Part shown: piece after piece, positions 148 to 64,000 of the stretch
Numbering within the stretch: the first letter of the stretch is position 1
Layout of the letters: every line of letters begins with the position of its first letter
IMG/VR virus record: IMGVR_UViG_3300032116_000089
Span: 26,428 to 90,427 of that record
DNA length: 64,000 nucleotides
Source: a virus
Reading direction: 5' to 3' (one strand)
Translations under genes and position numbers: made by a program
The notes under the pieces: model-generated
What the model was told of the DNA's origin: nothing
What the model saw: the letters and a program-made list of their open reading frames with translations, nothing else
Databases searched by the model: none

Positions 148-148
148 A

Positions 149-49211: not shown

Positions 49212-49239
49212 ACCTTACGAAAGATTCAGAATCAAGCCC

Positions 49240-49267: not shown

Positions 49268-49290
49268 AGAGAAAGAAAGAGAAAAAGAAA

Positions 49291-49500: not shown

Positions 49501-49548
49501 CACCCTAGAAAAATCTGCTAGAATAAGAGAAAGAAAAGGAAAAAGAAA

Positions 49549-49710: not shown

Positions 49711-49759
49711 CACCTAAAAGCAATACGCTACAATAGAATCAACACAAGGGAAAAAAGAA

Positions 49760-49909
49760 ATGACCATCCAAGTCCAAAACACTGTTCGCTGCCTAGTCGC
49801 CCGTCATGGATATTCGGCCACGTTCGTGCAGCACATGGGCGAAGGTATCGTGTTGTATAGCATCGGCGGTATCATGTACCGTATTCGTGGTGATGGTACG
49901 ATTCTCTAA
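49760..49909 (+). CDS. Small early protein (49 aa)
   Basis: MTIQVQNTVR...; own promoter. Confidence 0.7.
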   Translation: MTIQVQNTVRCLVARHGYSATFVQHMGEGIVLYSIGGIMYRIRGDGTIL

Positions 49910-49959
49910 GGTATTTGACAGGCCAGAATCCGATAAGTAAGAAAGAAAGAGAGAACCAA

Positions 49960-50190
49960 ATGAGAATCCCCAAAGAGTCAACCATTCGTCAAAATTTTCG
50001 TGCCTATGCCTACAAGGCTGGCTTCACGATCCTTCCGCAAACGAATGGCCTTTACAACGTGTTCGATAATCGCGTAGGCTATACCGTGAACCGGAATCGA
50101 ACCATGTGCGAAGTGGTGCGAATCATCATCGACGAAATGCACATGATCGAATACAACCGAAAGAATCGTTCCCCCGTTGTGGGGGCTTGA
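49960..50190 (+). CDS. Small early protein, paralog of 50560..50757
   Basis: Shared K.GF...G.Y...D...GY.V...VVR.I.DE..MIEYN.KNRS. Confidence 0.8.
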   Translation: MRIPKESTIRQNFRAYAYKAGFTILPQTNGLYNVFDNRVGYTVNRNRTMCEVVRIIIDEMHMIEYNRKNRSPVVGA

Positions 50191-50241
50191 CAACTGGAGT
50201 AGGGGGTGAAAGGGTGTACACCACTACTTAGGGGGGTTGCC

Positions 50242-50286
50242 GGGGGGCCGCATTCGACGTAAACCCTTACGCCACAAAGACTTACG
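50242..50286 (+). repeat. Composite repeat R2 (core + right palindrome)
   Basis: GGCCGC at 50246; palindrome at 50258. Confidence 0.85.
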
Positions 50287-50365
50287 ACGAGTAACGACGC
50301 AACTACAATGCCAAGGAATAAAAAAATCCTATGCTCACAGAATGGGCATGGTAAGATGGGTAACC

Positions 50366-50534
50366 CGTCGCAAAATGCTACACTACCATAGTTTCGCGGC
50401 TGAAATCGCTAACGCAAAATGATACAGTGTGTTGCAAAATGCTACGCTCAAAATCTAGGCACAAAAAATAGCATAGCGTTTTTCCCGAGGAAAACAGCAC
50501 TTCAGAATATTTCTGTATTGGCACACCGATTGCT
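50366..50534 (+). promoter_or_regulatory. sigma54 promoter with three upstream activator sites, copy 2
   Basis: TGGCAC-ACCGA-TTGCT at 50519; boxes at 50366, 50410, 50430. Confidence 0.8.
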
Positions 50535-50559
50535 CTATATAAGGGTAAAGAAAGAGAGA

Positions 50560-50757
50560 ATGAAAATGAAAAATCTGAAGATGGAAGCCGTGAAGGTTGG
50601 ATTCGTGCTGAGTAAGGATGCCAGTGGATTCTACCACCTGCACGATATCAAGATGGGTTACGATGTGCTGGTTACGGCTTTCCGTGCTAGCGTCGTTCGT
50701 GCCATTCAAGACGAAAAGGCGATGATCGAATACAACAAAAAGAATCGCTCCCTCTGA
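50560..50757 (+). CDS. Small early protein, paralog of 49960..50190
   Basis: Sequence similarity to the paralog; follows sigma54 promoter. Confidence 0.8.
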   Translation: MKMKNLKMEAVKVGFVLSKDASGFYHLHDIKMGYDVLVTAFRASVVRAIQDEKAMIEYNKKNRSL

Positions 50758-50820
50758 ATGGGGGTTGCGACGGCGGAAAAAGTTTCATACACTTCACCAA
50801 TCACCAAGAGGAAAAAGAAA

Positions 50821-51153
50821 ATGGCTACCAAGTTCAAGATCATCGAAGATGCAAAGCGTCAGGCTCGCATGTGCTTTTTGGGAATCGCAATCCCTCACCA
50901 ACCGCGACTCGCAAACGGCGAGTACGGTCCGATTCGTTCGGAAAAGATTCTCAAGTTCAATCGCAAGGCTCTGCGTCGTGGCCGATCTACCAAGATTGAA
51001 AGCGTGGACGGTCGTTTGATTGGCGGTGACGATACCATGATCGTAAAGGTTGGAAAGCCCGGTTCGTGTGAGCGTGTTGAGGCTTTGCGGTCACAGTACG
51101 AGTTGATCGCCGCCAGCGGTCACGAAGTGTCGCCGTTCAGTTTTGAGGGTTGA
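50821..51153 (+). CDS. Hypothetical basic protein
   Basis: GAGG RBS, promoter at 50765. Confidence 0.7.
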   Translation: MATKFKIIEDAKRQARMCFLGIAIPHQPRLANGEYGPIRSEKILKFNRKALRRGRSTKIESVDGRLIGGDDTMIVKVGKPGSCERVEALRSQYELIAASGHEVSPFSFEG

Positions 51154-51212
51154 CACCTAAAGTTTCATCCTGTAGAATACCGATATAAGAGAAGTAACCA
51201 AAAGGAAAGAAA

Positions 51213-51512
51213 ATGACTCACGCCGAAGCGACAAAGATGGTTTTGGGCAAGCGTAATCGTAGCCAGCGTAAGGTTGGAAATAATACCTACGCTTATATTG
51301 AATATGATGGAAGTGTGGCTATTGAGTTGCATGGCACTAAGGTAGTGGTTTTTTCTCCTAATGGTATGGTGAAGTTGAACAGTGGTGGATATCGCACCCA
51401 TACTACGAAAAAGAGAATCAACCAGTATAGCCCCGTGCGGGTTTATCAGAAAAACTTTGAGTGGTTTTTGAGTGATGGTACTCCGTTTGAAGATAACATT
51501 TTGGTTTCATAA
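51213..51512 (+). CDS. Hypothetical phage protein (LHGT...LNSGGY.T.TTK.RIN motif)
   Basis: Own promoter and RBS. Confidence 0.75.
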   Translation: MTHAEATKMVLGKRNRSQRKVGNNTYAYIEYDGSVAIELHGTKVVVFSPNGMVKLNSGGYRTHTTKKRINQYSPVRVYQKNFEWFLSDGTPFEDNILVS

Positions 51513-51527
51513 AGAAAGGGGCCACGG

Positions 51528-51629
51528 ATGGTCGATATAAACTGGGTGTGTGTAGGTGTGGGATTTGTTGCTGGCGTTGCTGGTTGTTGGCTTGTTTGTG
51601 ATCTTGTTTTTCCAGTGAAAAAGGACTGA
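51528..51629 (+). CDS. Tiny membrane peptide (33 aa)
   Basis: MVDINWVCVGVGFVAGVAGCWLVCDLVFPVKKD. Confidence 0.5.
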   Translation: MVDINWVCVGVGFVAGVAGCWLVCDLVFPVKKD

Positions 51630-51631
51630 CT

Positions 51632-51709
51632 ATGCGTACACTAGACAAAGTTACACTAGCGGTATCATTCGTGATCGGATGTATAGCGGCTTGGATCGTG
51701 AACAGTTGA
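51632..51709 (+). CDS. Tiny membrane peptide (25 aa)
   Basis: AAGGA RBS; MRTLDKVTLAVSFVIGCIAAWIVNS. Confidence 0.5.
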   Translation: MRTLDKVTLAVSFVIGCIAAWIVNS

Positions 51710-51756
51710 CGTAACTCTATATCTAACAAGGGTTTACGACGAGCGGGGCGGGCCGC
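51710..51756 (+). repeat. Composite repeat R3 (left palindrome + core)
   Basis: Palindrome at 51710; GCGGGGCGGGCCGC at 51743. Confidence 0.85.
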
Positions 51757-51766
51757 CGCCGATTTT

Positions 51767-51801
51767 TGGCATGGTATTTGCTAGTAGCAAGTCGTGTGCC
51801 A
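51767..51801. promoter_or_regulatory. Two face-to-face sigma54 -24/-12 motifs
   Basis: Plus strand TGGCAT-GGTAT-TTGCT (51767); minus strand TGGCAC-ACGAC-TTGCT (51801-51786). Confidence 0.65.
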
Positions 51802-51922
51802 AAAGTAGTCCGAATCCTGTCATCTTTTTAAGGAAAAATATTTGTAGGTTGGGGCTTGACATAGCCGATAATAGGTGTAGAATCAGAGCATGATGATTGA
51901 CAGCACCAACGGAGCGAATGCC

Positions 51923-52132
51923 ATGTACGAGTTTGATGATGTTGACCGTATCCTCGCTGAACTAGCCGAGCAGGGTACGCTTGAGCCGATGGCCGAGCCG
52001 ATTGATGAGCCTACGTGCCACCCGATGGATTGGGCCGAAGTCACGGGGCTGGCCGATGAGTTGGCCGATGAGATTTACCCCGAGCCGATTACGATGCTTG
52101 ACGAGGATGGTTTTGTATGGTATGTTTCTTGA
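51923..52132 (+). CDS. Small highly acidic protein
   Basis: D/E-rich; GGAG RBS; own promoter. Confidence 0.7.
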   Translation: MYEFDDVDRILAELAEQGTLEPMAEPIDEPTCHPMDWAEVTGLADELADEIYPEPITMLDEDGFVWYVS

Positions 52133-52145
52133 ATAGGAGAAAATC

Positions 52146-52415
52146 ATGAGTCACCCAGATCCCTGCTACGATCCCGATAACTCTTATGAGGATGATGAAA
52201 TGGCTACCCATTTTGATGATTACGAGTACGATTACCACGACGATTTCTATGGTGAGGATAGTTCGTCCTATCATCACGATGCTGATCATGAGGTTGAAAG
52301 CCAGTTTGATGATGATGTCTATGATGACAGTATGGACGGCGACCATGATTCCGCGATGGAATCCGCCGGTTGGGGAACGGATGAGGATTACGGTTACTAC
52401 GGGGAAGATTTCTAA
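52146..52415 (+). CDS. Extremely acidic Asp/Tyr-rich protein (ends SAGWGTDEDYG...)
   Basis: AGGAG RBS; no Lys or Arg. Confidence 0.75.
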   Translation: MSHPDPCYDPDNSYEDDEMATHFDDYEYDYHDDFYGEDSSSYHHDADHEVESQFDDDVYDDSMDGDHDSAMESAGWGTDEDYGYYGEDF

Positions 52416-52490
52416 AGTTGAGGCTTGACATTGGCCGATAACTAGTGTACAATGGTTGAAAAGGTTTACCCACTAAGGAGTTGATTAGGC

Positions 52491-52895
52491 ATGAATGATG
52501 CGTTTACGGTTGGTGTGATTGTTGCTTGTGCCGCTGCGGCGGTTGTTGTTTTCTTTCTCTATAACGTCTATAGGGGTGTGCATGATAGCCTTGCTAATGC
52601 TGTTATTGGTACTGTATATAACTTTCGATACTTCCAACCAGTGACCGGAACTTATGAAAGGTATCTTGCGAAGGTAGTTAGTATTCGTCACCTTGACCAT
52701 TGGGAACTTGGTAGGCTTGACTTTACTAGCGATTACCGTCGTAGTGACAAGAACTTCAAGCGTACACCTACGCTAGTTACGTGTCAGATGAGCGATGGTG
52801 AACACCGACAGTTCTACGCTGAACGTAGTGATATGTGCAAGCGTACACCGGTTGGTAACTTGCTTTATAACATGGGTGTAGCATACCTGTTCTGA
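52491..52895 (+). CDS. Membrane-anchored hypothetical protein
   Basis: N-terminal TM helix; own promoter. Confidence 0.7.
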   Translation: MNDAFTVGVIVACAAAAVVVFFLYNVYRGVHDSLANAVIGTVYNFRYFQPVTGTYERYLAKVVSIRHLDHWELGRLDFTSDYRRSDKNFKRTPTLVTCQMSDGEHRQFYAERSDMCKRTPVGNLLYNMGVAYLF

Positions 52896-52930
52896 TGTTC
52901 ACTAACTAACCCGATAACCTAGACCCTTCT

Positions 52931-53012
52931 CCTAAGTCCTTGCGGGCAAAGGAGTTAGGGCTAGGCGGGCGGGCCGCGTTCGCCGTAAGTCCTTACGCCA
53001 CAACACTTTACG
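52931..53012 (+). repeat. Composite repeat R4 (complete)
   Basis: Palindromes at 52931 and 52984 flanking GGCGGGCGGGCCGCG. Confidence 0.9.
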
Positions 53013-53049
53013 ACAAATCAAAAAATCTTTTATTTTCTGCTTGACAGGC

Positions 53050-53077
53050 TAAAGTTCCAATGGTAGAATGTCGATAA
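53050..53077 (+). promoter_or_regulatory. sigma28 (FliA/SigD)-like promoter motif (also 51158, 52413, 53750, 57242, 57490, 60938)
   Basis: TAAA-N16/17-(G/A)(C/T)CGATA, e.g. TAAAGTTCCAATGGTAGAATGTCGATAA. Confidence 0.6.
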
Positions 53078-53104
53078 TAGAAGTAGAAGAAAGAGAGTGA
53101 AAAG

Positions 53105-53326
53105 ATGAGTTGGAATGGTTATCGGATGAGTAGGGATATGTGGGGTAATGTGAGACACGAACATATCCATACTGGCTGGACTGTGACGTTCTCTATGGAT
53201 GGTAAGACTTGGACTTGGAAACTTGGGGCAAGGTATGCTACCAAGAGTGATGTTGAGCGTAAGGTTTTTAGCAAGTATCCGTCTGCTAGTAATATCCGTT
53301 GTAACAAGCATATTTGTGAGGTCTGA
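53105..53326 (+). CDS. Hypothetical protein
   Basis: Own promoter. Confidence 0.65.
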   Translation: MSWNGYRMSRDMWGNVRHEHIHTGWTVTFSMDGKTWTWKLGARYATKSDVERKVFSKYPSASNIRCNKHICEV

Positions 53327-53328
53327 AT

Positions 53329-53622
53329 ATGAACTGTAATAATCCCTATTATCCCTACTGGGTTAGCAATACCCTAAACTTTACCTACAATGGTAAGAAT
53401 GTTTGGGCGACTATTTTGGAGTTTGGCAAGGATTGGATAACTTGCATAACTAAGGATGGTTATAGGCGTTACAAGTGGAATAAAATGACTCCTCCTACGC
53501 TATACCAGTGCAGGGTGAGTGATTTGATTTTGCAATATGAAAGATATGGAAATAATGATTTTGAATATCTGTATCGATACTATGGGCCGTCAACGCCAAC
53601 GATTCAATGGAAAGAGGATTGA
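53329..53622 (+). CDS. Hypothetical protein
   Basis: GAGG RBS. Confidence 0.6.
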   Translation: MNCNNPYYPYWVSNTLNFTYNGKNVWATILEFGKDWITCITKDGYRRYKWNKMTPPTLYQCRVSDLILQYERYGNNDFEYLYRYYGPSTPTIQWKED

Positions 53623-53795
53623 CATAATGATATAGGGAGTTATACTATGTCAATATGGTATGAGTGAATACACTGCGAGGGGGATGTATCTCCCAAAGAA
53701 TGAAGATCGATGTTTTGCAGATAGTCAGCGTCAGTAGGGCTTGACAAACTAAACTTTTGAAGGTAGAATGTCGATACATACGCTAGGGGAACAGA

Positions 53796-54026
53796 ATGAA
53801 TATCTTTGGGACGTATACCAGTAAAGAGATAAAGAGCGTTATCAAGAAGCCATTTCATGAGTGGCCCGAAGATATCACTCTATATTTGCAGGACATTATG
53901 GCTGGCGAACTAATGGATCAGTGGCTAGAGACTCACTCTGACGAAGAATACGTAGAATACATTGAGAATATCGTAGAAGATCTGACCTCCCATATTGAGG
54001 ATAACGACGAAGATTTAGATAGTTGA
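53796..54026 (+). CDS. Small acidic protein
   Basis: Own promoter and RBS. Confidence 0.7.
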   Translation: MNIFGTYTSKEIKSVIKKPFHEWPEDITLYLQDIMAGELMDQWLETHSDEEYVEYIENIVEDLTSHIEDNDEDLDS

Positions 54027-54106
54027 CAACATACGGGTCTATGGTAGAATGATATCAAAGAAGCCATAGATAAAAGACAGTCGAGTATGGCAGACACCCG
54101 TATTTT

Positions 54107-54179
54107 GGGTCATTAGCTCAATCGGCAGAGCATCGGACTTTTAATCCGTTGGTTGTAGGTTCAAGTCCTACATGACCCA
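54107..54179 (+). tRNA. tRNA-Lys (UUU)
   Basis: Cloverleaf; anticodon loop CT-TTT-AA; T-loop TTCAAGT. Confidence 0.92.
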
Positions 54180-54241
54180 TTGACTTTTTCGTGTGTATAA
54201 AGTATAATAGATAAAACCATCCTCTAACCTCCCGGAATACT

Positions 54242-54388
54242 ATGTATAACGAAAACGTCATGAAGTGGTGCGGCCCTTACGATCAAGAAGAATACGAAGA
54301 ACTCATTGGCGATGATGAGCGAGATATCATCGTATATGATGACAGCAATGAGTGGTACAATATTTATGCTTCGGAGGCTGATGTTTGA
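54242..54388 (+). CDS. Small acidic protein (48 aa)
   Basis: Promoter at 54180; MYNENVMKWCGPYDQEE... Confidence 0.55.
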   Translation: MYNENVMKWCGPYDQEEYEELIGDDERDIIVYDDSNEWYNIYASEADV

Positions 54389-54475
54389 GTTACGGGATGT
54401 GGTCTGACCCTAGCCCATGCTAGACGTAGGACTGCCCTAGTGGTTTTGTGGGATTCCATTTTAAAAATCCCACTT

Positions 54476-54547
54476 GCCCGCATAGTATAAAGGCTATTAC
54501 AGTTGATTTGTAATCATCGGATGAGGGTTCGATTCCTTCTGTGGGCT
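54476..54547 (+). tRNA. tRNA-Thr (UGU)
   Basis: GCCCGCA/TGTGGGC acceptor; loop TT-TGT-AA. Confidence 0.88.
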
Positions 54548-54556
54548 TTGATTGAT

Positions 54557-54629
54557 TGCCCGGTAGCTTAACTGGCAGAGCAAGGGATTTTGGTTCCCTC
54601 GGTTGTAGGTTCGAATCCTACTCGGGCAT
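54557..54629 (+). tRNA. tRNA-Gln (UUG)
   Basis: AGGGA-TT-TTG-GT-TCCCT anticodon arm; TTCGAAT T-loop. Confidence 0.9.
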
Positions 54630-54689
54630 TTACGGTTCGAATCTTTAGGCTCAGTTGGTGTATAATACTATACCAAAGGAGATTTAAAG

Positions 54690-55124
54690 ATGAAAATGAA
54701 AGAACAAATATTAGAACTAAAAGCACAAGGTTATTCTTACAGAGATATACAAGCAAAACTTGGATGTTCCAAAGGAACAATAGCGTATCATGTAGGTATA
54801 GGTCAAAAAGATAAAACTCAAAATAGAACCAAAGAATATAGAACAAAGGTTAAAAGATACATACAAGAGTATAAGTCTGGTAAAAGATGTGCTGATTGTG
54901 GAGAGGATTATCCATACTGGCTATTAGAGTTTGATCATACTAGAGATGATAAAAGTTTTAATATATCAGAGTTCTCTCAACACACTATAGCATTAGAAAA
55001 AATTAAAGAAGAAATAAGTAAGTGTGACGTTGTATGTTGCAACTGCCATAGAAATAGAACATTTATGAGACAAACTAACGACGCTAGATATGTAGGTATA
55101 GAATTTTGTAAGTATCCAGAATAA
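54690..55124 (+). CDS. HTH-HNH endonuclease (putative homing endonuclease) in the tRNA cluster
   Basis: SYRDIQAKLGCSKGTIAYH HTH; CADC...FDH...CCNCH. Confidence 0.85.
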   Translation: MKMKEQILELKAQGYSYRDIQAKLGCSKGTIAYHVGIGQKDKTQNRTKEYRTKVKRYIQEYKSGKRCADCGEDYPYWLLEFDHTRDDKSFNISEFSQHTIALEKIKEEISKCDVVCCNCHRNRTFMRQTNDARYVGIEFCKYPE

Positions 55125-55129
55125 CGTGA

Positions 55130-55201
55130 ACACAGGTAGCATAATGGTAATGCCCCAAACTGTTAATTTGTCAGATGTAGGTTCGAATCCTACCCTGTGT
55201 G
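55130..55201 (+). tRNA. tRNA-Asn (GUU)
   Basis: ACACAGG/CCTGTGT acceptor; loop CT-GTT-AA. Confidence 0.85.
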
Positions 55202-55205
55202 CTTT

Positions 55206-55277
55206 GGCCCCATCTTCTAACGGTTAGGAAATCGGATTTTCGCTCCGAGAATCAGGGTTCGATTCCCTGTGGGGTCA
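55206..55277 (+). tRNA. tRNA-Glu (UUC)
   Basis: TCGGA-TT-TTC-GC-TCCGA. Confidence 0.9.
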
Positions 55278-55280
55278 TTT

Positions 55281-55354
55281 GGGAATGTAGATCAACTGGT
55301 TAGATCGCTAGCCTGTCACGCTAGAGGTTGCGGGTTCAAGTCCCGTCATTCTCG
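55281..55354 (+). tRNA. tRNA-Asp (GUC)
   Basis: CTAGC-CT-GTC-AC-GCTAG. Confidence 0.92.
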
Positions 55355-55363
55355 TTATCTTGT

Positions 55364-55411
55364 CGTAAGTCCTTATCTATCAAGTATTTAGGAATAGCGG
55401 GGCGGGCCGCG
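55364..55411 (+). repeat. Composite repeat R5 (left palindrome + core)
   Basis: Palindrome at 55364; core at 55397. Confidence 0.85.
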
Positions 55412-55496
55412 AATCCTATGCCAAAGATTTTCTCAAGATTTCCCCTTGACTGTGCCGATGTATAGTGTAGAATCGGTGAACACAAGGGAGAGAATC

Positions 55497-56201
55497 ATGA
55501 AAGTTGCAAACGGTAATGACAAGTTGGGCAAGGGTTGTTTGGTCGTTTCTAGGCCAGTTGGTGATACTTGTCCGTCAACGTGTGCATTTTTGGGTAACGG
55601 TTGCTATGCAGAGCAAACCGAGAAAATGTATCCTAACGTGCGTCCTGCTGGTATGCAGAATGTTATCACTGAGCGTGGGCGTATTCGCTCCATGATTCTG
55701 GACGCTATTCGTCAAGGAAAATCTATTCGTTGGCATGAGCGTGGCGATTGGTTTCTTGACGGTAAACTGGATATGGATTATGTGAACAATGTTATTTGGG
55801 CTTGTGATAGCATTGTGAGCGAAGGTAAGATTCTGCCCGATATGTGGTTTTATACCCATATCTACGACGCTAGACTTGTGGCTATGGAAAAGTATATGGC
55901 GGTCTATGCTAGTGTGCATAACGCTAATGACAAGGCTACGGCATCACTCGCCGGATTCAAACTGTTCGCATGGTGCGATAGCGATGAGAAGATTGCGAAG
56001 AAACGCCCCAAGCGTAAAAACCTTGCCGATGCTTGGCGTAAGAGTCTGCCCAAACTTGTGATTCTCGACGGCGAGAAGTTTATCACTTGCCCCGAAATCC
56101 GTCGTGGTCGCGGCGTTGTGACTTGCACTCCGACGAAGGGTAGTGTAGACTGTAATCTGTGCGTCAAGGGTTTGGCTAACGTGTTGTTTCCATCACACTG
56201 A
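55497..56201 (+). CDS. Gp88-like (Fe-S/radical-SAM-like) phage protein
   Basis: N.KL, TCP..C....CYA, RWHERGD, WFYTH and C-terminal CP...C...C..C. Confidence 0.7.
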   Translation: MKVANGNDKLGKGCLVVSRPVGDTCPSTCAFLGNGCYAEQTEKMYPNVRPAGMQNVITERGRIRSMILDAIRQGKSIRWHERGDWFLDGKLDMDYVNNVIWACDSIVSEGKILPDMWFYTHIYDARLVAMEKYMAVYASVHNANDKATASLAGFKLFAWCDSDEKIAKKRPKRKNLADAWRKSLPKLVILDGEKFITCPEIRRGRGVVTCTPTKGSVDCNLCVKGLANVLFPSH

Positions 56202-56208
56202 GGATAAG

Positions 56209-56427
56209 ATGAAAGTTTTTACATACGATTGTGTTACGCTTGCCGATGTTTGTGAGCAGAACACTCTAGATTATGGTCATGTTATAGAGGAAATATCCCA
56301 TAGTGATATTTCATTTGGCACTAACGAGGATACCTTGATTAGCAAGAGTATGCTTGAACAAGTATTAGATATTACTATTGACTTTGGTGGTCTGGACGAT
56401 ACCGTACTTATTAGCCTTGGGAGTTGA
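56209..56427 (+). CDS. Small acidic protein
   Basis: GAGG RBS. Confidence 0.65.
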   Translation: MKVFTYDCVTLADVCEQNTLDYGHVIEEISHSDISFGTNEDTLISKSMLEQVLDITIDFGGLDDTVLISLGS

Positions 56428-56429
56428 CG

Positions 56430-56936
56430 ATGTATACTATTGTAAAGAAGCGTAGCGGTGCTGGTTGTGCATCATCGTTTTATAAACTCAAGGGTAAGAA
56501 AAATCGTGGGTTTAAAATCTTCCAATCCAAAGAAGATGCAGAGATTGCCCATACTAATCAAGTAGAACTGTCAATGTATAATCTAGCCCCGTATGTTTAT
56601 AGTCAAGTCGGTCGTGTTCGTAAGAGTGATAAGAGTCTAACTGGCTGGGGATATGTTACAGAAATCGCGGAACTAATCTGCTGCCCCGGTAATGGTTGCT
56701 ACTGTTGTGATCGTGAAGAACTAGAAGATGAATATTGTGATGAGATGAGCAATCTAGTTTGCAATATGGAAGAATATGGATTTAGTTTTGGAGATAATCA
56801 CGCTGGCAATGTTGGATTTGTAAATCGTGATGGTCATAAGGTGATGGTATGTATTGACACTGGAGATGAAAGCGTAGTAAACGAAAATAGGTGTTTTTGC
56901 ATCACTTGCAGAAAAGGCGGTTGCTGCCATGAGTAA
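56430..56936 (+). CDS. Minimal protein-kinase-like protein
   Basis: GAGC loop, GFKIF Lys, APYVY, DNHAGN catalytic loop, IDTG. Confidence 0.7.
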   Translation: MYTIVKKRSGAGCASSFYKLKGKKNRGFKIFQSKEDAEIAHTNQVELSMYNLAPYVYSQVGRVRKSDKSLTGWGYVTEIAELICCPGNGCYCCDREELEDEYCDEMSNLVCNMEEYGFSFGDNHAGNVGFVNRDGHKVMVCIDTGDESVVNENRCFCITCRKGGCCHE

Positions 56937-57156
56937 GTATTACATTAAGTCTAACACGCTAGAACTTATCTACTCTACAGATAAAACTCCCCTTGAGGCT
57001 GCGATTGTAGCACTAGGTGAGACTAACAAGTTTGACGTATTAGATGAACATTTTTACATTGACGAGCGTGGTATGAAAGACTACGTTACAGCACTTCCCG
57101 ATACTATTGTAATCCCCACTAAACTAGTGGCAGCAGAAGCCGGTTGGACGATGTGA
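56929..57156 (+). CDS. Hypothetical protein
   Basis: Coupled ORF. Confidence 0.65.
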   Translation: MSKYYIKSNTLELIYSTDKTPLEAAIVALGETNKFDVLDEHFYIDERGMKDYVTALPDTIVIPTKLVAAEAGWTM

Positions 57157-57238
57157 CGTAAACCCTTGTAGCCATTAGGGTTACGGCGAACGGGGCCGGG
57201 GAGATTTGACGTAAACCCTTATCAAATATAGACTTACA
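57157..57238 (+). repeat. Composite repeat R6 (complete, divergent core)
   Basis: Palindromes at 57157 and 57210. Confidence 0.85.
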
Positions 57239-57300
57239 ACCTAAAGTTTTTTCTTGACTGTGCCGATAGGTATGGTATGATAGTTGCATAGGAGACACGT

Positions 57301-57492
57301 ATGTATATTTGGAGAGTTTGGAAAGATAATCGGTTTGCGGGGTATGTATCGTCCCCTAGTCAGTTTGATGCATACGTGAAGGCCCGAGATGAGTTTGGGC
57401 AAAATGTGTGGGTTGAGCGGACTGTGCAATATGCAGTGGTGTACCACCCAAATAATCAAGATCATTTTGTGAGAGATAGTCAGCCAGCCTAA
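57301..57492 (+). CDS. Hypothetical protein
   Basis: AGGAG RBS, own promoter. Confidence 0.7.
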   Translation: MYIWRVWKDNRFAGYVSSPSQFDAYVKARDEFGQNVWVERTVQYAVVYHPNNQDHFVRDSQPA

Positions 57493-57524
57493 AGTTTCTG
57501 AGCAGGAATGTCGATAATCCTTAT

Positions 57525-57872
57525 ATGAAAAAGGAGACAGGCATCATGATTCAATGGATTGGCGTGATCATTACGATTTGCGGTCTGGTGTATACGGGAA
57601 TAAAAGATGTTCAAACTGGCGTGATAAAAATACCTACGTTATCGCAAAACGAGGTATTGACAAAAACAAACTATCCAATACAATACTGTCTGATGGCTTA
57701 CGATCCTAACACTGACAAAGTTTACTATCAACACGAAAACGGTATATGGTATGATTACCCTCCACAACAACGACGATATGCGGCCACGCCGCAACGTAAT
57801 CAAAATCAAGAAAGTTATGCCGTGGGAAATGCGGCAGGGACACCAAGAACACAAGTTTACGGTGTTCGATAA
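57525..57872 (+). CDS. Membrane-anchored hypothetical protein
   Basis: TM segment; sigma28-like motif upstream; start may be 57546. Confidence 0.55.
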   Translation: MKKETGIMIQWIGVIITICGLVYTGIKDVQTGVIKIPTLSQNEVLTKTNYPIQYCLMAYDPNTDKVYYQHENGIWYDYPPQQRRYAATPQRNQNQESYAVGNAAGTPRTQVYGVR

Positions 57873-57928
57873 TCGCCCCAAGCGACAGCGTACCCGTAGG
57901 GATATTGAACGTCAATGGCGGAATGAAT

Positions 57929-58354
57929 ATGACTCCTAAACCATTACATGGCGAAGTTCGTTTCCACCTGAGTAGGGGCGAACATTATATGCACTGGCAA
58001 GTAAAAGTCATGCAGGGTAGAAAGAAAGTTGATGTATATTATTACGATCCTAATGAGTATCAGTTAGAGATGCGGGGTTGTAAGTTGATAAACAAGCCAA
58101 ACAAGGCTAAACAAGTATTTGAGGCTGGAGTTCATGATGTGAGCGGTTGGGTAAAGTGTGACGAAGTGATGCTTCGCAAAACATTTTATCCAAAGTTGCC
58201 TATTGACAATCTTGAAAAGGTGTTCTATAATCCTATTCGTGATCCACACTGGCGACGAGAGAGTGACTCTAACGAGTTTGTGTGGGACGATAGCGAGTAT
58301 GCTACTTTACTAACTGACGGCAAACAAGTCTACATTTTGGAAGAAAGAGTCTAA
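57929..58354 (+). CDS. Hypothetical protein
   Basis: Long ORF with plausible composition. Confidence 0.7.
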   Translation: MTPKPLHGEVRFHLSRGEHYMHWQVKVMQGRKKVDVYYYDPNEYQLEMRGCKLINKPNKAKQVFEAGVHDVSGWVKCDEVMLRKTFYPKLPIDNLEKVFYNPIRDPHWRRESDSNEFVWDDSEYATLLTDGKQVYILEERV

Positions 58355-58355
58355 T

Positions 58356-58838
58356 ATGCCTAACTGGTGCATGAACAATATAACGGTTTCTCACGCTGAT
58401 CCTGCTAAAGTGCAGGAGTTTGCTGATGCCTATAACTCAGGGAATACATGTGACCACTATCTTCCGTGTCCTAAAGACAAGGATGGTAAGATTATTATGG
58501 ACGAGAGTAGTCCAGACTATTGGTACAAGTGGTGCATAAATAACTGGGGTGTCAAGTGGGACTTTGGTAAGGATGAGTATGGTGACTCTGCTGTTGTTGT
58601 AGATAATGAAGTATCTGTATCATTCAATACCGCTTGGGCACCGCCTAATGGTTTGTATGATGAGTTGCACCGTCAAGGATACATTCTAAATGGTTCGTAT
58701 TGGGAACCCGGAATGGGATTCTGCGGCACCATTGAAAATGGCATGGATTTGTATGTGGAATATAGAGACAAGGAAGAAATCCCCGATCATTTGTGGGATG
58801 AGTATGGCATGGCAGATTTTTTTGAGGAAATGGCTTGA
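58356..58838 (+). CDS. DUF1281/YubB-like ferredoxin-fold protein
   Basis: MPNWC.N...WY.W...NWGVKWD...F.TAWAPP...EPGMGFCG. Confidence 0.8.
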   Translation: MPNWCMNNITVSHADPAKVQEFADAYNSGNTCDHYLPCPKDKDGKIIMDESSPDYWYKWCINNWGVKWDFGKDEYGDSAVVVDNEVSVSFNTAWAPPNGLYDELHRQGYILNGSYWEPGMGFCGTIENGMDLYVEYRDKEEIPDHLWDEYGMADFFEEMA

Positions 58839-58867
58839 CAAGCCGAAAATAGAGTGTAGAATACAAG

Positions 58868-59312
58868 AGTCGCAAGCAAGTGGTAATCGGGAATGAATGA
58901 AATCCAGCCGGTTGGTCATTCCTGACACTCGCTGCCGTTGCTCATATGTTTGTCCGAGTATGAGTACCGATAAAACGCTAAGACTTAGCAAGTCTATCGG
59001 CTACAATACAAACTTACGTGTGGTAGTTGCTACTACTAGAGAGATAGCCCAGCAAACAGCGTCTGCATCTAATGGGTGTATGGGGTTGCCGACCTAGGCT
59101 ATGGGAAGGCTCATGCTGCTCTCTATTGGGTTGGATTCCCGACACACGATTTAATACAACCAGTAATCGTTTCCAAGAGCCAGATGAATCATATAGCATA
59201 GCGCAGTGTGAAAGATTCTAGAGAGGTTTCCGTGGGCGGTTTCCATCCGATCCCGACAAGGGGCAATCGTATGGGTTATAGGAATCGGGGCGTAAAAGAT
59301 TCCGCTGGTTTT
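58868..59312 (+). ncRNA. Putative structured ncRNA(s) including a tRNA-like domain
   Basis: Follows promoter 58835; no ORF with RBS; dense nested stems. Confidence 0.55.
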
Positions 59313-59351
59313 TCTTATTGACAGACTGATAACTAATGGTATAATGAGAAT

Positions 59352-59528
59352 ATGAAAACTGAAACCCTTGAACTTACTAAGACTGAACTTGAATATCTAT
59401 ACAATGTTGTAGATGACCATATTCGTTCTGGTATTTACTGGGGCAAAAAAGAAAACTTTGAAAGTCTGCAAAAGAAAGTATTTGATAAGGTAGAAGAAGC
59501 ATACGACATACTCTGTGAGCAATCATAA
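59352..59528 (+). CDS. Hypothetical protein (58 aa)
   Basis: Directly after promoter 59318 (probably near-leaderless). Confidence 0.6.
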   Translation: MKTETLELTKTELEYLYNVVDDHIRSGIYWGKKENFESLQKKVFDKVEEAYDILCEQS

Positions 59529-59782
59529 TGGAATGGATTAGTTTCTTCGGTCCTCGTCGCCCTATTAACGGGCAGAAAGTTTACTACTTTGGTGAATACA
59601 TTGGCGTGTGGCAAGGGCGGTATGAGATTCATCGTGATGATCCAGTAAGTGAACATATCTTGATTTGTGAAGAAAGTCCCGGTATAGTAGATCGTATGGA
59701 TGCTCCGTGGTGGATGCCATATGAGGGACAACCAAAACCGCAACGACCAGAAAGTGATTACCCAAAGGATTATCCAAAATGA
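59528..59782 (+). CDS. Hypothetical protein (MEWIS...P.RP...WWMP; DUF551-like)
   Basis: Coupled ORF. Confidence 0.65.
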   Translation: MEWISFFGPRRPINGQKVYYFGEYIGVWQGRYEIHRDDPVSEHILICEESPGIVDRMDAPWWMPYEGQPKPQRPESDYPKDYPK

Positions 59783-59937
59783 AACTGGTACTATATGCTG
59801 TTTGCTGGAAAGAAGATGGAGATACGGTTGATCCTCAATGGGTTTTTCGCACACGCGAAGAAGCACAAGAAGTTATTGATGATTGTTATGGTAGAGGAGT
59901 AATCGTAGAACTATTCAAGAAAGAAAATAATGACTGA
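59779..59937 (+). CDS. Hypothetical protein (52 aa)
   Basis: ATGA coupling. Confidence 0.55.
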   Translation: MKLVLYAVCWKEDGDTVDPQWVFRTREEAQEVIDDCYGRGVIVELFKKENND

Positions 59938-60103
59938 AGAGCGTGAAAAGGCTATGATTTATCTTCTTAGTTTTTTCAAGAATAGAATGGCCGCTGTAAA
60001 TAAGCATAACGTAGATAAGGCTAAAGAGTTGATTGGATTACATGAAATATCAGTAAGTGAACTGATTAATAAGTACGTGGAACTGGTCTACAAAAACTCT
60101 TAA
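59930..60103 (+). CDS. Hypothetical protein (57 aa)
   Basis: Overlapping operon ORF. Confidence 0.55.
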   Translation: MTEEREKAMIYLLSFFKNRMAAVNKHNVDKAKELIGLHEISVSELINKYVELVYKNS

Positions 60104-60114
60104 TAGGAAATAAA

Positions 60115-60489
60115 ATGATTAATGTCAAACTGACCGTTCGTGAGGCTACGTGGATTCTCTCCAAGATTGAGTCCTACGACACGATCTATGACAAGATTGT
60201 GGCAGGGATTGAGGACGCTATTGGTGTGAATCGTCACAAGACCGTTACCATCACTGGCGGTATGACCTTTGACAACCGTATTCCTTGTATCAAGGCTATT
60301 CGTCTCAACACTGGTTGGGGCTTGAAGGAAGCCAAGGATTGGAGCGACGTTCTGGTGGGAACGTGGGATGATGCTGGTCGAAGGCTCAAGGGTGCCAGCC
60401 GTCACAGCATGACCCTCAAGACTCCAGAAGCGGCTGAGAACCTCTTGCGTGATCTGGTGGGTTTGGGGTGCGAAGGTTTTCTCTCTTGA
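60115..60489 (+). CDS. Ribosomal protein bL12 (L7/L12) C-terminal-domain-like protein
   Basis: RIPCIKAIRLNTGWGLKEAKDWSD matches the L12 KI.VIK.VR..TGLGLKEAKDLVE motif. Confidence 0.75.
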   Translation: MINVKLTVREATWILSKIESYDTIYDKIVAGIEDAIGVNRHKTVTITGGMTFDNRIPCIKAIRLNTGWGLKEAKDWSDVLVGTWDDAGRRLKGASRHSMTLKTPEAAENLLRDLVGLGCEGFLS

Positions 60490-60571
60490 TCTAAGTCCTT
60501 GCCCACTAAGGATTTAGAACCAAGGGGGCGGGCCGCGTTCGCCGTAAGTCCTTATCCCACAACGACTTATG
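60490..60571 (+). repeat. Composite repeat R7 (complete)
   Basis: Palindromes at 60490 and 60543; core GGGGCGGGCCGCG at 60525. Confidence 0.9.
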
Positions 60572-60677
60572 AGGAATAAATATTTTTTCAAGGAACAGGG
60601 GTTGACAGGACGATATACTATGGTAGAATGATTGAAGTAACGGGTTGATAACACTAACACTTGTAAGGAGTTTGATT

Positions 60678-60932
60678 ATGCAGAAGTATACGTTTGTGGT
60701 TGATGTGGTTTCGGATTCGGCTATCGACGCGAACACGGTTCGTGCTTCGCTGCTGGAGACTGTGGATGGTATCGGTACGATTGCTGCCGTGCATCCGGCG
60801 AAGGTTGATTCGCTCAAGGAGCAGGGCTTCAAGGTTTGGCGGGCAAGGGTTGCTGGTATCAAGGAACCGGCCAAGGTCAAGGCTCCCAAGGCCAAGAAGG
60901 TCGAGGCCGAGGTTGCTACGGCGACCGCTTGA
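60678..60932 (+). CDS. Small protein with Lys/Ala/Pro-rich tail
   Basis: TAAGGAG RBS, own promoter. Confidence 0.75.
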   Translation: MQKYTFVVDVVSDSAIDANTVRASLLETVDGIGTIAAVHPAKVDSLKEQGFKVWRARVAGIKEPAKVKAPKAKKVEAEVATATA

Positions 60933-61019
60933 TTTTCTAAAGATTGTCTGCTAGAATGTCGATACTGGTGAAGTAGTAGTAGCCAGTATCCATTCTAGCC
61001 CACTAACTAGGAGATTACA

Positions 61020-61376
61020 ATGGGTTTGGATCAGTTTGCATTTGCTATCGACAACAATGGAGAAAAGGAAGAACTCGCCTGCTGGCGTAAGCATCCTAAT
61101 CTTCAAGGTTGGATGGAACGGTTGTGGGAAAACAAGGGTTACCCTAACGCCCACGATAATGATAACTCTTTCAACTGTGTTGAACTTGAACTGACTAAGA
61201 GAGATTTGGACGATCTGGAACGGGCTGTTACTAATGGTACGTTACCGGCTACGGTTGGATTTTTCTTTGGTAGTAATAGCGATGCTGTTTACGGACAGCA
61301 GGACTTGGAGTTTATCAAGAAAGCCAGAGAGGCACTTGACAGCGGACTGACCGTAGTGTATGATAGTTGGTGGTGA
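61020..61376 (+). CDS. Hypothetical phage protein (MGLD...WRKH...YDSWW motifs)
   Basis: AGGAG RBS; recognisable phage-family motifs. Confidence 0.8.
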   Translation: MGLDQFAFAIDNNGEKEELACWRKHPNLQGWMERLWENKGYPNAHDNDNSFNCVELELTKRDLDDLERAVTNGTLPATVGFFFGSNSDAVYGQQDLEFIKKAREALDSGLTVVYDSWW

Positions 61377-61401
61377 CATTTCGACAACCATGAGGAACGA
61401 T

Positions 61402-61542
61402 ATGAAGATTCTTGGATTGGGCGATGAGACTGATGCTGGCAAGGTTGTTCGCATTGGTCGTGATGGTGTGACATTTGAGAAGAATGGTGCGAAGGTTGTG
61501 TTGACCCTCGCTGATGTTGAGTCGATGGTTTTTTCTAACTAA
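61402..61542 (+). CDS. Small hypothetical protein
   Basis: GAGG RBS. Confidence 0.6.
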   Translation: MKILGLGDETDAGKVVRIGRDGVTFEKNGAKVVLTLADVESMVFSN

Positions 61543-61547
61543 GGGAG

Positions 61548-61766
61548 ATGATAATGTCTAATAACTTTGCTAGCCTTCGTAAGAACCGCCATATCAAGTG
61601 CAAGTATCCACTGCATGGCAGCAAGAACGTGCTGAAGTATCACGTTGGTCGCATTGAACGTGTTGGTACTGGCCCTAATGGTCGATATGCCGTGGTTCGT
61701 GCCGTTGATCAGACGGTGCGTACCCTTCTGTGCGATAAGATGATCGAAACGAAGTGCTATCGTTGA
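61548..61766 (+). CDS. Small basic protein
   Basis: GGGAG RBS. Confidence 0.65.
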   Translation: MIMSNNFASLRKNRHIKCKYPLHGSKNVLKYHVGRIERVGTGPNGRYAVVRAVDQTVRTLLCDKMIETKCYR

Positions 61767-61823
61767 TTCTCCCTTGAGTGTACGGGTGGCGTATGGTACA
61801 ATGCTATGCGTCACCCGTATCAT

Positions 61824-61899
61824 GGGGCGTAAGGTAAGCCGGTTGCATCCGACACTCTTATAAGGTGTTCATAGGTACGTTCGACTCGTACACGCCCTA
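61824..61899 (+). tRNA. tRNA-Ile (UAU)
   Basis: GGGGCGT/ACGCCCT acceptor; ACACT-CT-TAT-AA-GGTGT; GTACG-TTCGACT-CGTAC; own promoter; atypical D arm. Confidence 0.8.
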
Positions 61900-62050
61900 C
61901 TGTTCTTTTTCTGTAACAGCCTAGGGAGATCACTTGATAGAACTTATGATTATGATTATTGTGTGGAGTATGTTGAACCAAGACTAATAAATCGGAATAG
62001 TTTGACTTATAAAGTAACCAATATTCCCCCAAACATTTAGAGGTAAACAT

Positions 62051-62263
62051 ATGAACGAACTGATAGCCACCTATGTTATGGATGATGTACGCTATGATAT
62101 TTATGCGTGTTATGATTCTGCTGATGATATGGATACTCGTAATGTATCTTTCTATGACGTTTACAACCAAAAGACGGGAGCGTGTGTGAACGAGGGCGAT
62201 CCTTGGGAAACCATGCCAACGTGGAATGAGATTTTTCATACCTATTACTCACCGGTGAAATAA
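62051..62263 (+). CDS. Hypothetical protein
   Basis: GAGGT RBS. Confidence 0.7.
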   Translation: MNELIATYVMDDVRYDIYACYDSADDMDTRNVSFYDVYNQKTGACVNEGDPWETMPTWNEIFHTYYSPVK

Positions 62264-62421
62264 TGAATACTAAAATGCAAAATAAGATAAACGAGTTTCT
62301 TGATGGTTGGTATAAGACGGAAGATGATTGTATGTTTGATATTAACGACTATAATGATTGGATGAATGAAGCAGTTGAGTTGCTAGAAGAAATAGTTGGT
62401 CGCGTTAGAGAGGAAAGTTGA
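62263..62421 (+). CDS. Small acidic protein (52 aa)
   Basis: TAATG coupling. Confidence 0.55.
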   Translation: MNTKMQNKINEFLDGWYKTEDDCMFDINDYNDWMNEAVELLEEIVGRVREES

Positions 62422-62423
62422 GC

Positions 62424-62606
62424 ATGTACCACTACGTTACTATTGAAGTTGTTATGCGTAACTGTAAATCAGCAGAGGATGCTAAACAAAAATGCGAAAG
62501 ACTGTTACCATATAAGCCAGACGAGAACTGTACATATATGGAATCGTGGGAAATAACTAGGTCCGCATCACCATTTGCCGTAAGTCCTTTGCCACCAAAG
62601 GTTTAG
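62424..62606 (+). CDS. Hypothetical protein
   Basis: GAGG RBS; 3' end runs into repeat R8. Confidence 0.55.
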   Translation: MYHYVTIEVVMRNCKSAEDAKQKCERLLPYKPDENCTYMESWEITRSASPFAVSPLPPKV

Positions 62607-62660
62607 GACCGACGCGGCCCGCCCCGCTCGTCGTAAGTCCTTATCTACCAACAACTTACG
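62579..62660 (-). repeat. Composite repeat R8 (complete, inverted)
   Basis: Core CGCGGCCCGCCCCGC at 62613; palindromes at 62579 and 62632. Confidence 0.9.
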
Positions 62661-62735
62661 TCTAGAGAAAAAAACTAATGCTGACCCCTTGACTCTGCCG
62701 ATATACATGGTATGATGGTTGAAAAGGAGACAGTT

Positions 62736-62966
62736 ATGGTTTGTGCTGTTCGTGATACTATTTGCGATGCTTTTTGCAAACACTGCGGGCGTCAGTTTGT
62801 ATTGACGTTTGATAAGAGTGATATGTATGATTGGTTGAGCGGTTCGCTGCCCATCCAGAATGCTTTGCCTTATCTTTCTGCTAACGAGCGTGAACTGCTC
62901 TTGAGCGGAACGTGCGGCGACTGTTTCGACAAAATGTTTCCGCCCGACCTTGACAACGGCGAATGA
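62736..62966 (+). CDS. Small Zn-finger-like protein (CxxC...CxxC)
   Basis: AAGGAG RBS; CKHC, CGDC. Confidence 0.7.
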   Translation: MVCAVRDTICDAFCKHCGRQFVLTFDKSDMYDWLSGSLPIQNALPYLSANERELLLSGTCGDCFDKMFPPDLDNGE

Positions 62967-63012
62967 TCGTTGTATAATACGAGAAGTTGATAACCCACTA
63001 ACTAGGAGATTG

Positions 63013-64000
63013 ATGATGACTGCCTATAACAAGTTGACGATTGATAGCGACAAGTCGGAAGGTTCGTTTGTTCGCACCCTTGAGGGTAGGACCGGTACGG
63101 GTTTTGAGAATGGTACGCATGTCCACAAGGATTGGTGGAGCAAGACCAAGACCTACGAAGAAGTCATGCAGACTGCCCATGTCGCAGTCGAGAACCGCGA
63201 GGATATTCTGACTGAGCGTAAGAATATTACCTGTGTTGGTAATGATAAGGGATTCTTTTTGAAGTTGAACGATGGTCGAGAGTTTCGTCCTACGGATCAC
63301 TCCATTGAACAGTTTAGCGTTCGTTCGGGCGTTACCTCGTCCTCGTTCCTTCGTGAGATGCGTAATATCGAAGGTTTCGACCTTGCCGATGCTGAAGTCA
63401 TGGCATACGTTGGTAACAATGCTCTGCGTCGAATCGACGCTGACAAAAAGTTTCGCTTGCGTACCTATACGGATGGAACGTGCCGTGCGTTCGTGACTGA
63501 GCAGTATGCTCCGGTTGACAATCGCTGGTATCTGGAAACCCTCGCAGAGTTTATTCCCGGTGGTCGTTTCAGTCACTGGCGTGGCGATGAGGATACCATC
63601 TATGGTAACGTCCTTATCCCCGATACCATCATGGACTACGGTGCTGATGATAGTGATTACGGTGGAATGATTAGCGTTGGTAACTGCGAGATCGGCACTC
63701 GCCGCATTAGCCAGACTCCTAGCCTGTTTCGTGCTATTTGCATGAACGGTTGCATCTGGGGTCAGACTGCCGGTGAGAAGATTCGCCGTGTTCACCGTGG
63801 CAATATCGACCTTATTAAACTTAAGGATGAAATCGCCCATAATATCCAAGATCAGATTCCGCTTCTTGCTCCCGGTATCAAGCAGTTTCTGGCTACCCGT
63901 GCTTTGGAAACTGGCAAGGCTAGCGTCAAGGGTATCGTGGCTACGGTATCGTCGGATTACAAACTTAGCAAGCGTGAGGCTACTGAGTTTCTTGAGCAGT
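63013..64000 (+). CDS. DUF932-family protein (3' truncated by the window; not in ORF track)
   Basis: AGGAG RBS; RAFVTEQYAPVDN...GNCEIG...RAICMNG...RRVHRG. Confidence 0.8.
   Translation, partial: MMTAYNKLTIDSDKSEGSFVRTLEGRTGTGFENGTHVHKDWWSKTKTYEEVMQTAHVAVENREDILTERKNITCVGNDKGFFLKLNDGREFRPTDHSIEQFSVRSGVTSSSFLREMRNIEGFDLADAEVMAYVGNNALRRIDADKKFRLRTYTDGTCRAFVTEQYAPVDNRWYLETLAEFIPGGRFSHWRGDEDTIYGNVLIPDTIMDYGADDSDYGGMISVGNCEIGTRRISQTPSLFRAICMNGCIWGQTAGEKIRRVHRGNIDLIKLKDEIAHNIQDQIPLLAPGIKQFLATRALETGKASVKGIVATVSSDYKLSKREATEFLEQ

Follow-up and report, generated by a model that had tools for sequence, protein, structure and literature searches.

A gene-free stretch in the early region of an uncultured lake phage is a promoter-driven cassette of separately folding small RNAs

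Introduction

What does a phage make from some 450 nt of its early region that appear to hold no gene, and is the product one RNA or several? We addressed this question for nucleotides 58868-59312 of a 64,000-nt stretch of viral DNA (hereafter the window). The window is the final 64 kb of an IMG/VR virus record of 90.4 kb, for which CheckV estimates a completeness of 57%. An earlier, sequence-only reading had described these nucleotides as a single structured non-coding RNA of about 450 nt, transcribed from its own promoter, and had drawn attention to the large phage RNAs GOLLD and ROOL. Here we report that the gap carries no protein gene and forms a cassette with its own promoter, in which three small RNAs fold separately.

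Minus-strand structural genes, including those for tail fibres, the large terminase and a 2361-aa tape measure protein, occupy nucleotides 1-48,400. The genes of nucleotides 49,000-64,000 are small and on the plus strand, and this part also has seven tRNA genes and a large number of near-consensus sigma-70-type promoters. The tape measure gene (149-7234, minus strand) is of unusual length, which implies a very long tail. A promoter scan of 56-62 kb found 24 near-consensus sigma-70-type promoters compared with 12.5 expected, and matches of 12/12 or 11/12 were located at 57657, 58203, 58835, 59318, 60602, and 61336 (window 56000-62000). Near-consensus promoters every few hundred bases suggest that almost every small early gene has a promoter of its own. 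In relatives, the early promoter is part of a repeated cassette (CTTGACAAGCCGATAA...). Upstream of the gap lies a DUF1281_C/Api92-like gene (58356-58838; Pfam E = 2.6e-4, just under the cut-off), and downstream lies a 58-aa ORF (59352-59528, plus strand). The tRNA genes nearest to the cassette in the window, as called by ARAGORN, are 2.5-3.5 kb off. One of these is a lone tRNA-Ile (anticodon UAU; 61824-61900, plus strand) 2.5 kb downstream, separate from a six-tRNA cluster at 54.1-55.4 kb.

Results

Layout of the Cassette

The cassette promoter, a sigma-70-type element (TTGACA-16-TAGAAT), was located by the promoter scan at 58835-58862 on the plus strand. A second one (TTGACA-16-TATAAT with TG; 59318-59345, plus strand) lies outside the RNA and would drive the 58-aa ORF that begins at 59352. 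Promoters had been proposed at both positions, and both proved to be true sigma-70-type consensus matches. No internal promoter was found by the scan at the linkers that join the modules, where the sole -35-like hexamer is spaced 11 nt.

Between the two promoters, we distinguish three modules on the plus strand. Module 1 (58867-59002) consists of three consecutive hairpins (58872-58935, 58939-58966, and 58967-59000) and is without a closing stem. The unpaired linker ACAAUACAAACUU (59003-59015, plus strand), which contains AATACAA at 59005-59011, precedes module 2, and a second linker (59149-59157, plus strand) precedes module 3, with its AATACAA (59153-59159) extending into the closing stem of that module. 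Another AATACAA (58860-58866) overlaps the -10 box of the cassette promoter and the likely start site. The three copies, beginning at 58860, 59005, and 59153, are thus spaced 145 and 148 nt apart, and each precedes a stretch of approximately 140-155 nt. Among the 51 distinct linkers preceding module 2, A was invariant (51/51) at three positions and C was present in 47, while the nucleotide directly 5′ of the module 2 stem was U in 48 of 51 distinct sequences; ATACAA was present in the leaders of 46 of the 55 distinct versions of module 3. As judged from these comparisons, the AAUACAA-type linker, predicted to be unpaired and nearly invariant, is the most conserved part of the cassette.

The likely end of the transcription unit is a U5 tract at the 3′ end of the module 3 closing stem (59309-59313, plus strand). 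A TTGAC -35-like hexamer follows module 3 within 40 nt in the window, where it belongs to the full consensus promoter described above, and in 21 other distinct sequences; from sequence, we read this hexamer as the next promoter. In 19 of the 55 distinct sequences, the window included, a U-run comes first and the hexamer then follows within the same 40 nt. Neither element was present in 28 of the 55, where the array or a gene carries on.

Module 1 is lineage-specific and was detected in near-identical relatives only, with no divergent homologue among the relatives searched. In one of these, L011, it is identical at 132 of 138 positions, and two of the differing positions, 58880 (G>A) and 58928 (C>U), compensate each other.

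Stems and Folding Energies

All of the stems listed by the sequence-only reading are present in the sequence and were recovered by unconstrained MFE folds. They are TCGGGAATGA/TCATTCCTGA (58888-58925, with one G-U), TGCTCATA/TATGAGTA (58939-58966, with one G-U), CCGATA/TATCGG (58967-59000), AACCAG/CTGGTT enclosing GGAATC/GATTCC (59158-59310), and CCAT-CGAT-CCC/GGG-ATCG-ATGG (59242-59275). The cloverleaf of the middle module (59016-59149) was absent from that list. The folding z-score of the whole stretch was -0.84 on the plus strand and -0.78 on the minus strand, and the MFE z-scores of modules 1, 2, and 3 were -2.5, -1.7, and -1.05, respectively. As these energies are not significant, the stems taken alone are no more than expected by chance, and we did not use folding energy as evidence. 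That the stretch is structured, as had been proposed, is instead borne out by conservation and covariation in about 100 other phage contigs.

Modules 2 and 3 Are Shared by Large Phages of Lakes

A blastn search of the GenBank phage collection with the region and 3 kb around it gave no match, indicating that no cultured phage carries the cassette. Homologues were found via the flanking gene and three motif scans and were confirmed by HMMs and covariance models. Nucleotides 59003-59314 are 75-85% identical in IMG/VR contigs in which the protein of the upstream gene reaches only 54-65% identity. Two exact motifs of the 3′ half retrieved 54 and 49 contigs and a motif from the 5′ half retrieved 25 more, giving a total of about 100 distinct contigs. 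Profile searches split the conserved part into two units, which we call m5 (module 2) and m3 (module 3), and both occur among these approximately 100 IMG/VR contigs of large (about 150-230 kb), uncultured lake phages. The DNA runs containing the stretch are mostly labeled as lake or freshwater metagenome, with eight labeled as "fungus metagenome". The m3 loop motif occurs in only three MAG contigs among 185,579 species genomes, and because the bin labels of these MAGs disagree, no host is indicated.

Module 2 (m5; 59016-59149, plus strand; model R2, 61 bits, E = 1.6e-10) forms a cloverleaf-like four-way junction composed of a closing stem (59017-59022/59143-59148), a first arm (59023-59036), a branched second arm (59037-59125), and a third arm (59126-59142). 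The closing stem has 5-6 bp and reads CGUGUG/CACACG in the window and CCGUGG/CCACGG, UCGUGG/CCACGA, CGUAUG/CAUACG, or GCGUGG/CCACGC elsewhere. The first arm is short (GUAGU/ACUAC in the window, GUCC/GGAC and GUC/GAC elsewhere), the middle arm spans 63-111 nt with a branched interior (UAGAGAG/CUCUCUA in the window, UAGAUUGG/CCAAUCUA and others elsewhere), and the last arm has 4-6 bp with a loop of 3-7 nt. Different as the stem sequences are, 48 of the 51 distinct m5 sequences reached this same junction when folded singly without constraints. In a covariance-model alignment of 53 distinct sequences, changes on both sides were seen in 24 of the 36 pairs (189 cells), 91.1% of the cells were paired compared with 35-42% when the partners were slid, and the covariation score was 0.326 vs. 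0.05-0.085 for slid partners, with none of 500 shuffles reaching the observed value. Covariance-model alignments, for m5 as for m3, lean toward the given structure, and since the m5 alignment was fitted to its model, the independent support for m5 comes from the free single-sequence folds. The 3′ trailer of m5 is variable and is N-CCA-like in some m5 only.

Module 3 (m3; 59158-59311, plus strand; model R1, 138 bits, E = 8e-35) is also a four-way junction. Its closing stem (59158-59164/59304-59310) has 7 bp, AACCAGU/GCUGGUU. The first arm (59165-59241), AAYCGUU/GRCGGUU, surrounds a conserved inner domain that is made up of CCAAGAGCCAGA, a variable hairpin and AGGGAGGAUUUCCGUGG; the second arm (59242-59275) varies in sequence and length or is missing; and the last arm (59281-59303) has 5-6 bp and carries an invariant 11-nt loop, GGGGCGUAAAA (59287-59297). 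The core comprises 18 pairs that are 99.5% paired, five of them compensatory, compared with 22-45% in slid controls, and the observed value was reached in 0 of 500 shuffles. Peripheral arms were swapped whole between phages, while the core is almost invariant, and 32 of the 55 distinct m3 sequences reached the four-way junction in unconstrained folds. Alignment of whole modules with MAFFT followed by RNAalifold recovered the invariant stems only, because swapped arms misalign, and was replaced by single-sequence folds and covariance-model alignments. We also considered a likeness of the m3 loop to the GGGCGUAAAG stretch of 16S rRNA and rejected it, as the 8-mer match was estimated to be at chance level.

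Frequent and even invariant G-U pairs in the homologues, among them invariant U-G pairs in both m5 and m3, are compatible with a plus-strand RNA only, as they would be A-C mismatches on the other strand. The plus-strand assignment made earlier therefore holds.

m5 and m3 Are Separable Units

The single RNA of about 450 nt proposed by the sequence-only reading was not supported, as the stretch resolved into the three modules described above. Both m5 and m3 have a terminal stem of their own, and no pairing between modules was predicted. The gap between them in relatives is 0-4 nt in about half of the loci and 60-240 nt in the remainder, and these longer spacers are themselves self-closed modules with their own terminal stems, flanked by the AAUACAA linker. 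In L068, L085, and L149, m5 is duplicated. tRNA genes are found in the gap or next to it in other phages, and some abut the modules, with a tRNA-Glu 12 nt after m3 in L096, a tRNA-Gln 4 nt after m3 in L138, and a tRNA-Gly 5 nt before m5 in L119. When 26 loci were retrieved by m5 alone, m3 followed wherever the sequence sufficed, except in L160, L163, and L148. In the latter two, m3 has been lost except for a stump of its 5′ end (ACAACCAAUAA and ACAAUCAGUA, respectively), which leads directly into a protein gene. In L160, m3 has been lost as well, and a ribosome-binding site and a gene come immediately after the AAUACAA linker. Regular linkers, variable spacing, modular spacers, duplication, contact with tRNA genes, and the occurrence of m5 without m3 together show that m5 and m3 behave as separable beads and point to separate units rather than one RNA of about 450 nt.

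Several of these arrays have features of their own. The spacers in L078, L136, L105, and L130 are other module families inserted between m5 and m3, none of which was called by ARAGORN. Some such spacers have a canonical tRNA T arm (GGUUCGAUUCC or GGGUUUGAAUCCC), a 7-bp closing stem and an insertion of 60-100 nt. A miniature m5 of approximately 65 nt in L106 (12366-12430, minus strand; R2 E = 1e-7) is a plain cloverleaf the size of a tRNA, and a miniature m3 of approximately 95 nt in the L118 spacer (about 6671-6778, minus strand) has just the core and the GGAUCGUAAAU loop. These two miniatures mark the minimal conserved parts of each family.

RNA-Library Contigs from Relatives

Hints of expression came from contigs of four RNA runs (X15-X18), which derive from relatives rather than from the phage of the window and may contain DNA. 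In X16, a freshwater metatranscriptome, 17 contigs of relatives that are 90-99% alike lie on 59152-59313. The depth of single X16 contigs on m3 was 160-1320 vs. 21 for one contig on the next coding sequence, where the depths may mix phages. X16 had no contig on m5 or module 1, X17 and X18 gave thin cover of m5, and one contig of X15 crosses from the end of a relative's m5 into m3. No backward joints were seen in the contigs of the four runs. There was no RNA cover of 58800-58988, comprising module 1 and the promoter, which is uninformative given that module 1 is lineage-specific. Taken together, these contigs hint that m3 is an abundant RNA.

Discussion

m5 and m3 are two RNA families that are absent from Rfam 15, although they may overlap the unnamed "DNAVirus_X" entry of the IMG/VR csRNA catalogue (PMC10690425). 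The sequence-only reading had suggested an Rfam scan and a covariation check in homologues. The covariation check was positive, with compensatory pairs, whereas the scan (Rfam 15 cmscan of the whole window at gathering scores) returned tRNAs only. A permissive scan of 58700-59450 (E up to 10) added two chance matches, both with E > 5, and ARAGORN called no tRNA or tmRNA, permuted forms included, in 58868-59312. Judged by these models, the stretch is not an RNase P RNA, YrlA, tmRNA, GOLLD, or ROOL.

Both m5 and m3 have a tRNA-like shape, in which covariation maintains a junction of a closing stem with three arms. They resemble tRNA (RF00005) in the four-way junction, the short first arm and long middle arm (in m5), and the last arm, which continues directly into the 3′ strand of the closing stem. 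The acceptor/T minihelix of tRNA has 12 bp, and the closing stem and last arm of m5 and m3 together have approximately 10-13 bp; both RNAs are also co-located with tRNA genes. However, their closing stems have 5-7 bp, and they have no conserved CCA, G18G19, T-loop consensus, tRNA-type D or T loops, or anticodon loop. In m5, a branched domain of 63-111 nt takes the place of the anticodon arm, and in m3 a large domain stands where the first arm would be. ARAGORN found no tRNA inside any m5 or m3 of the relatives, and the Rfam tRNA model was silent in 58868-59312. GOLLD and ROOL, each a single RNA of roughly 500 nt or more, are likewise phage-borne, located near tRNA genes and of complex conserved structure, but the units described here are 135-155 nt, modular and separable, and no GOLLD- or ROOL-type large RNA was matched by any Rfam model in the stretch, even at E up to 10. 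YrlA (tRNA-like Y RNA, RF02553) is a tRNA-mimicking non-coding RNA that phages can encode. Its ends form the Ro-binding stem and its tRNA-like part is internal, such that its topology is reversed relative to m5 and m3, and RF02553 had no match in the permissive scan of 58700-59450. A phage-encoded RNA enzyme was also considered as a partner and rejected, as none of the candidates was consistently present. A TROVE/Ro60 gene was found in none of five phage records (the 57%-complete record of the window and four near-complete or complete relatives), a CCA-adding enzyme in none of those four relatives (94-100%, CheckV), and RtcB with an RNA ligase in only one of the four. In that relative, which is complete, the two genes are neighbors (bases 74-3576) at the end of its 232.7-kb contig (G004, to which L068 belongs).

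The closest parallel is provided by RNAC and RNAD of phage T4, which are classed as late RNAs (PMC9697503) and whose roles are still unknown (PMC3014915, PMC9697503). In T4 (NC_000866), tRNA-Arg is followed after 1 nt by rnaD (species 2, 119 nt) and, after a further 6 nt, by rnaC (species 1, 139 nt), which has a tRNA-type T arm and ends that pair. The T4 RNAs and m5/m3 are alike in size, in tandem pairing and in contact with tRNA genes, the latter seen for m5 and m3 in relatives. They differ in that m5 and m3 lie in a promoter cassette of their own, follow conserved AAUACAA linkers and lack a canonical T loop. An unfiltered search of NC_000866 69000-75000 with R1 and R2 matched rnaC/rnaD only in fragments of 15 and 21 nt (E = 7.7 and 8.9). 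The best matches in this region (E = 0.22-0.44) lie elsewhere, and those of the m5 model, which are not significant, are real tRNAs. Given this lack of R1/R2 homology, we regard T4 RNAC/RNAD as an analogue and not as a family member.

As a whole, the cassette is an RNA-only transcription unit, whose transcript is probably processed into stable tRNA mimics that may act in trans. The promoter at 58835-58862 would transcribe the three consecutive modules, and the unit would stop at the U-tract before the next promoter. Host tRNA-processing or RNase E-type enzymes may then cut the primary transcript at or next to the linkers, yielding what, by analogy with T4, would be stable RNAs of about 135-155 nt. 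Cutting is suggested by the contact with tRNA genes, the closing stem and last arm of minihelix-like length, the conserved U 5′ of the m5 stem, and the T4 case, in which the small RNAs at the end of the tRNA operon are a precedent for transcript cutting. A U just 5′ of a stem is a known preference of bacterial RNase P. Given the short closing stems, the missing conserved CCA and the lack of tRNA-type D/T loops, recognition by RNase P or RNase Z can be proposed as an analogy only. More tentatively, m5 and m3 might work in trans by offering their tRNA-like shape, as ligands or decoys, to a conserved protein of host or phage that recognizes tRNA architecture, with the invariant loops as the possible contact surface. 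This idea draws on those loops and on the finding that phage tRNAs counter tRNA-cleaving defences (PMC13096335).

Other explanations have to be weighed against this one. The order of m5 followed by m3, constant in nearly every sufficiently long locus and with a gap of 0-4 nt in about half, counts against independent beads and would fit a two-domain RNA or an obligate pair. It is conceivable, though unlikely, that m5 and m3 are a functionally coupled, tRNA-derived pair, either a new class of tRNA mimics that act in trans or a small ribonucleoprotein or ribozyme built from two RNAs, whose loops and AAUACAA tails engage a universally conserved host machine; candidates for this machine would be the translation apparatus, the enzymes that process tRNAs or a defence nuclease directed at tRNAs. 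We give a similarly small chance to a single large RNA that works unprocessed, such as a ribozyme or a GOLLD/ROOL-like assembly made of RNA only, in which m5, m3 and perhaps module 1 would be domains. The constant order, the close spacing, the extreme conservation of the m3 core and loops, and the X15 contig that bridges a relative's m5-m3 junction all speak for such an RNA. However, m5 and m3 are self-closed without predicted pairing between them, unrelated closed modules (60-240 nt), duplicates and mini-copies sit between the two, three phages have m5 only, no large RNA of Rfam is matched, and the RNA contigs covering m3, which are short, greatly exceed in depth any on m5.

Control of the downstream gene in cis, by a 5′ leader that acts as a riboswitch or binds a protein, would be consistent with the 28 of 55 distinct m3 that have no U-run or promoter after them and with the ribosome-binding site and ATG found within about 25 nt of m3 in L010, L006, L003, and L012. 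Yet in the window and the 21 other cases with a TTGAC hexamer, the downstream gene would have its own promoter, and elsewhere tRNA genes or more RNA modules come next. The immediate downstream gene varies, with the 58-aa ORF of the window present in only 5 of the 72 RNA-bearing loci, and no riboswitch model is matched, making this reading rather improbable. Still less probable is that the modules are decayed or insertion-bearing tRNA genes without a function of their own. Their cloverleaf-like topology and adjacency to tRNA genes, as well as the non-significant m5-model matches to real tRNAs of T4, speak for decay, but the compensatory pairing and the loops and linkers that stay invariant, though flanking proteins are only 24-65% identical, indicate selection, and the tRNA calls and hallmark tRNA elements are missing as described above. 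Finally, we consider it highly improbable that small proteins, one or several, are encoded here. There are ORFs of 66, 49, and 37 aa, and homologues have a median length of 67 aa for their longest open stretch, but open-frame length was an uninformative test when taken alone, and the question was decided by length variation and arm exchange. The homologous regions vary in length between 228 and 693 nt without favoring multiples of three (24:20:11), whole arms are exchanged, and substitutions in stems are compensatory. The 66-aa ORF has no Pfam match. The ORFs of the stretch, at 25-66 aa in total range, are without a convincing ribosome-binding site, in agreement with the earlier view that it is non-coding.

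The junction cores, loops, and linkers of m5 and m3 are far better conserved than the neighboring proteins. Together with the abundance of m3 relatives in a lake RNA library, this points to an important RNA function early in infection. The parallel with T4 RNAC/RNAD suggests, by analogy, that tRNA-shaped accessory RNAs may be a general feature of phage tRNA regions. Were m5 and m3 indeed a coupled pair, they would be the lake-phage counterpart of T4 RNAC/RNAD and would make the T4 problem testable. As the promoter is a sigma-70-type consensus match, the cassette could be expressed and dissected in E. coli.

Two genes recur near the cassette. An 84-aa ORF without a Pfam match (59528-59782, plus strand) is its most constant neighbor, found in 49 of the 72 loci and, in all but one of these, on the same strand 0.25-1.2 kb downstream of m3. 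In 43 of the 72 RNA-bearing loci, a 124-aa protein (60115-60489, plus strand, in the window) is encoded 0.7-3.2 kb downstream of m3; its match to PF00542 (C-terminal domain of ribosomal protein L7/L12) is weak and falls under the cut-off (E = 1.5e-4). Its homologues number 716, with identities of 61-96% among the 120 listed; many have a precomputed PF00542 match and some are named L7/L12 by JGI. A link between this L7/L12-like protein and the tRNA-shaped RNAs is possible.
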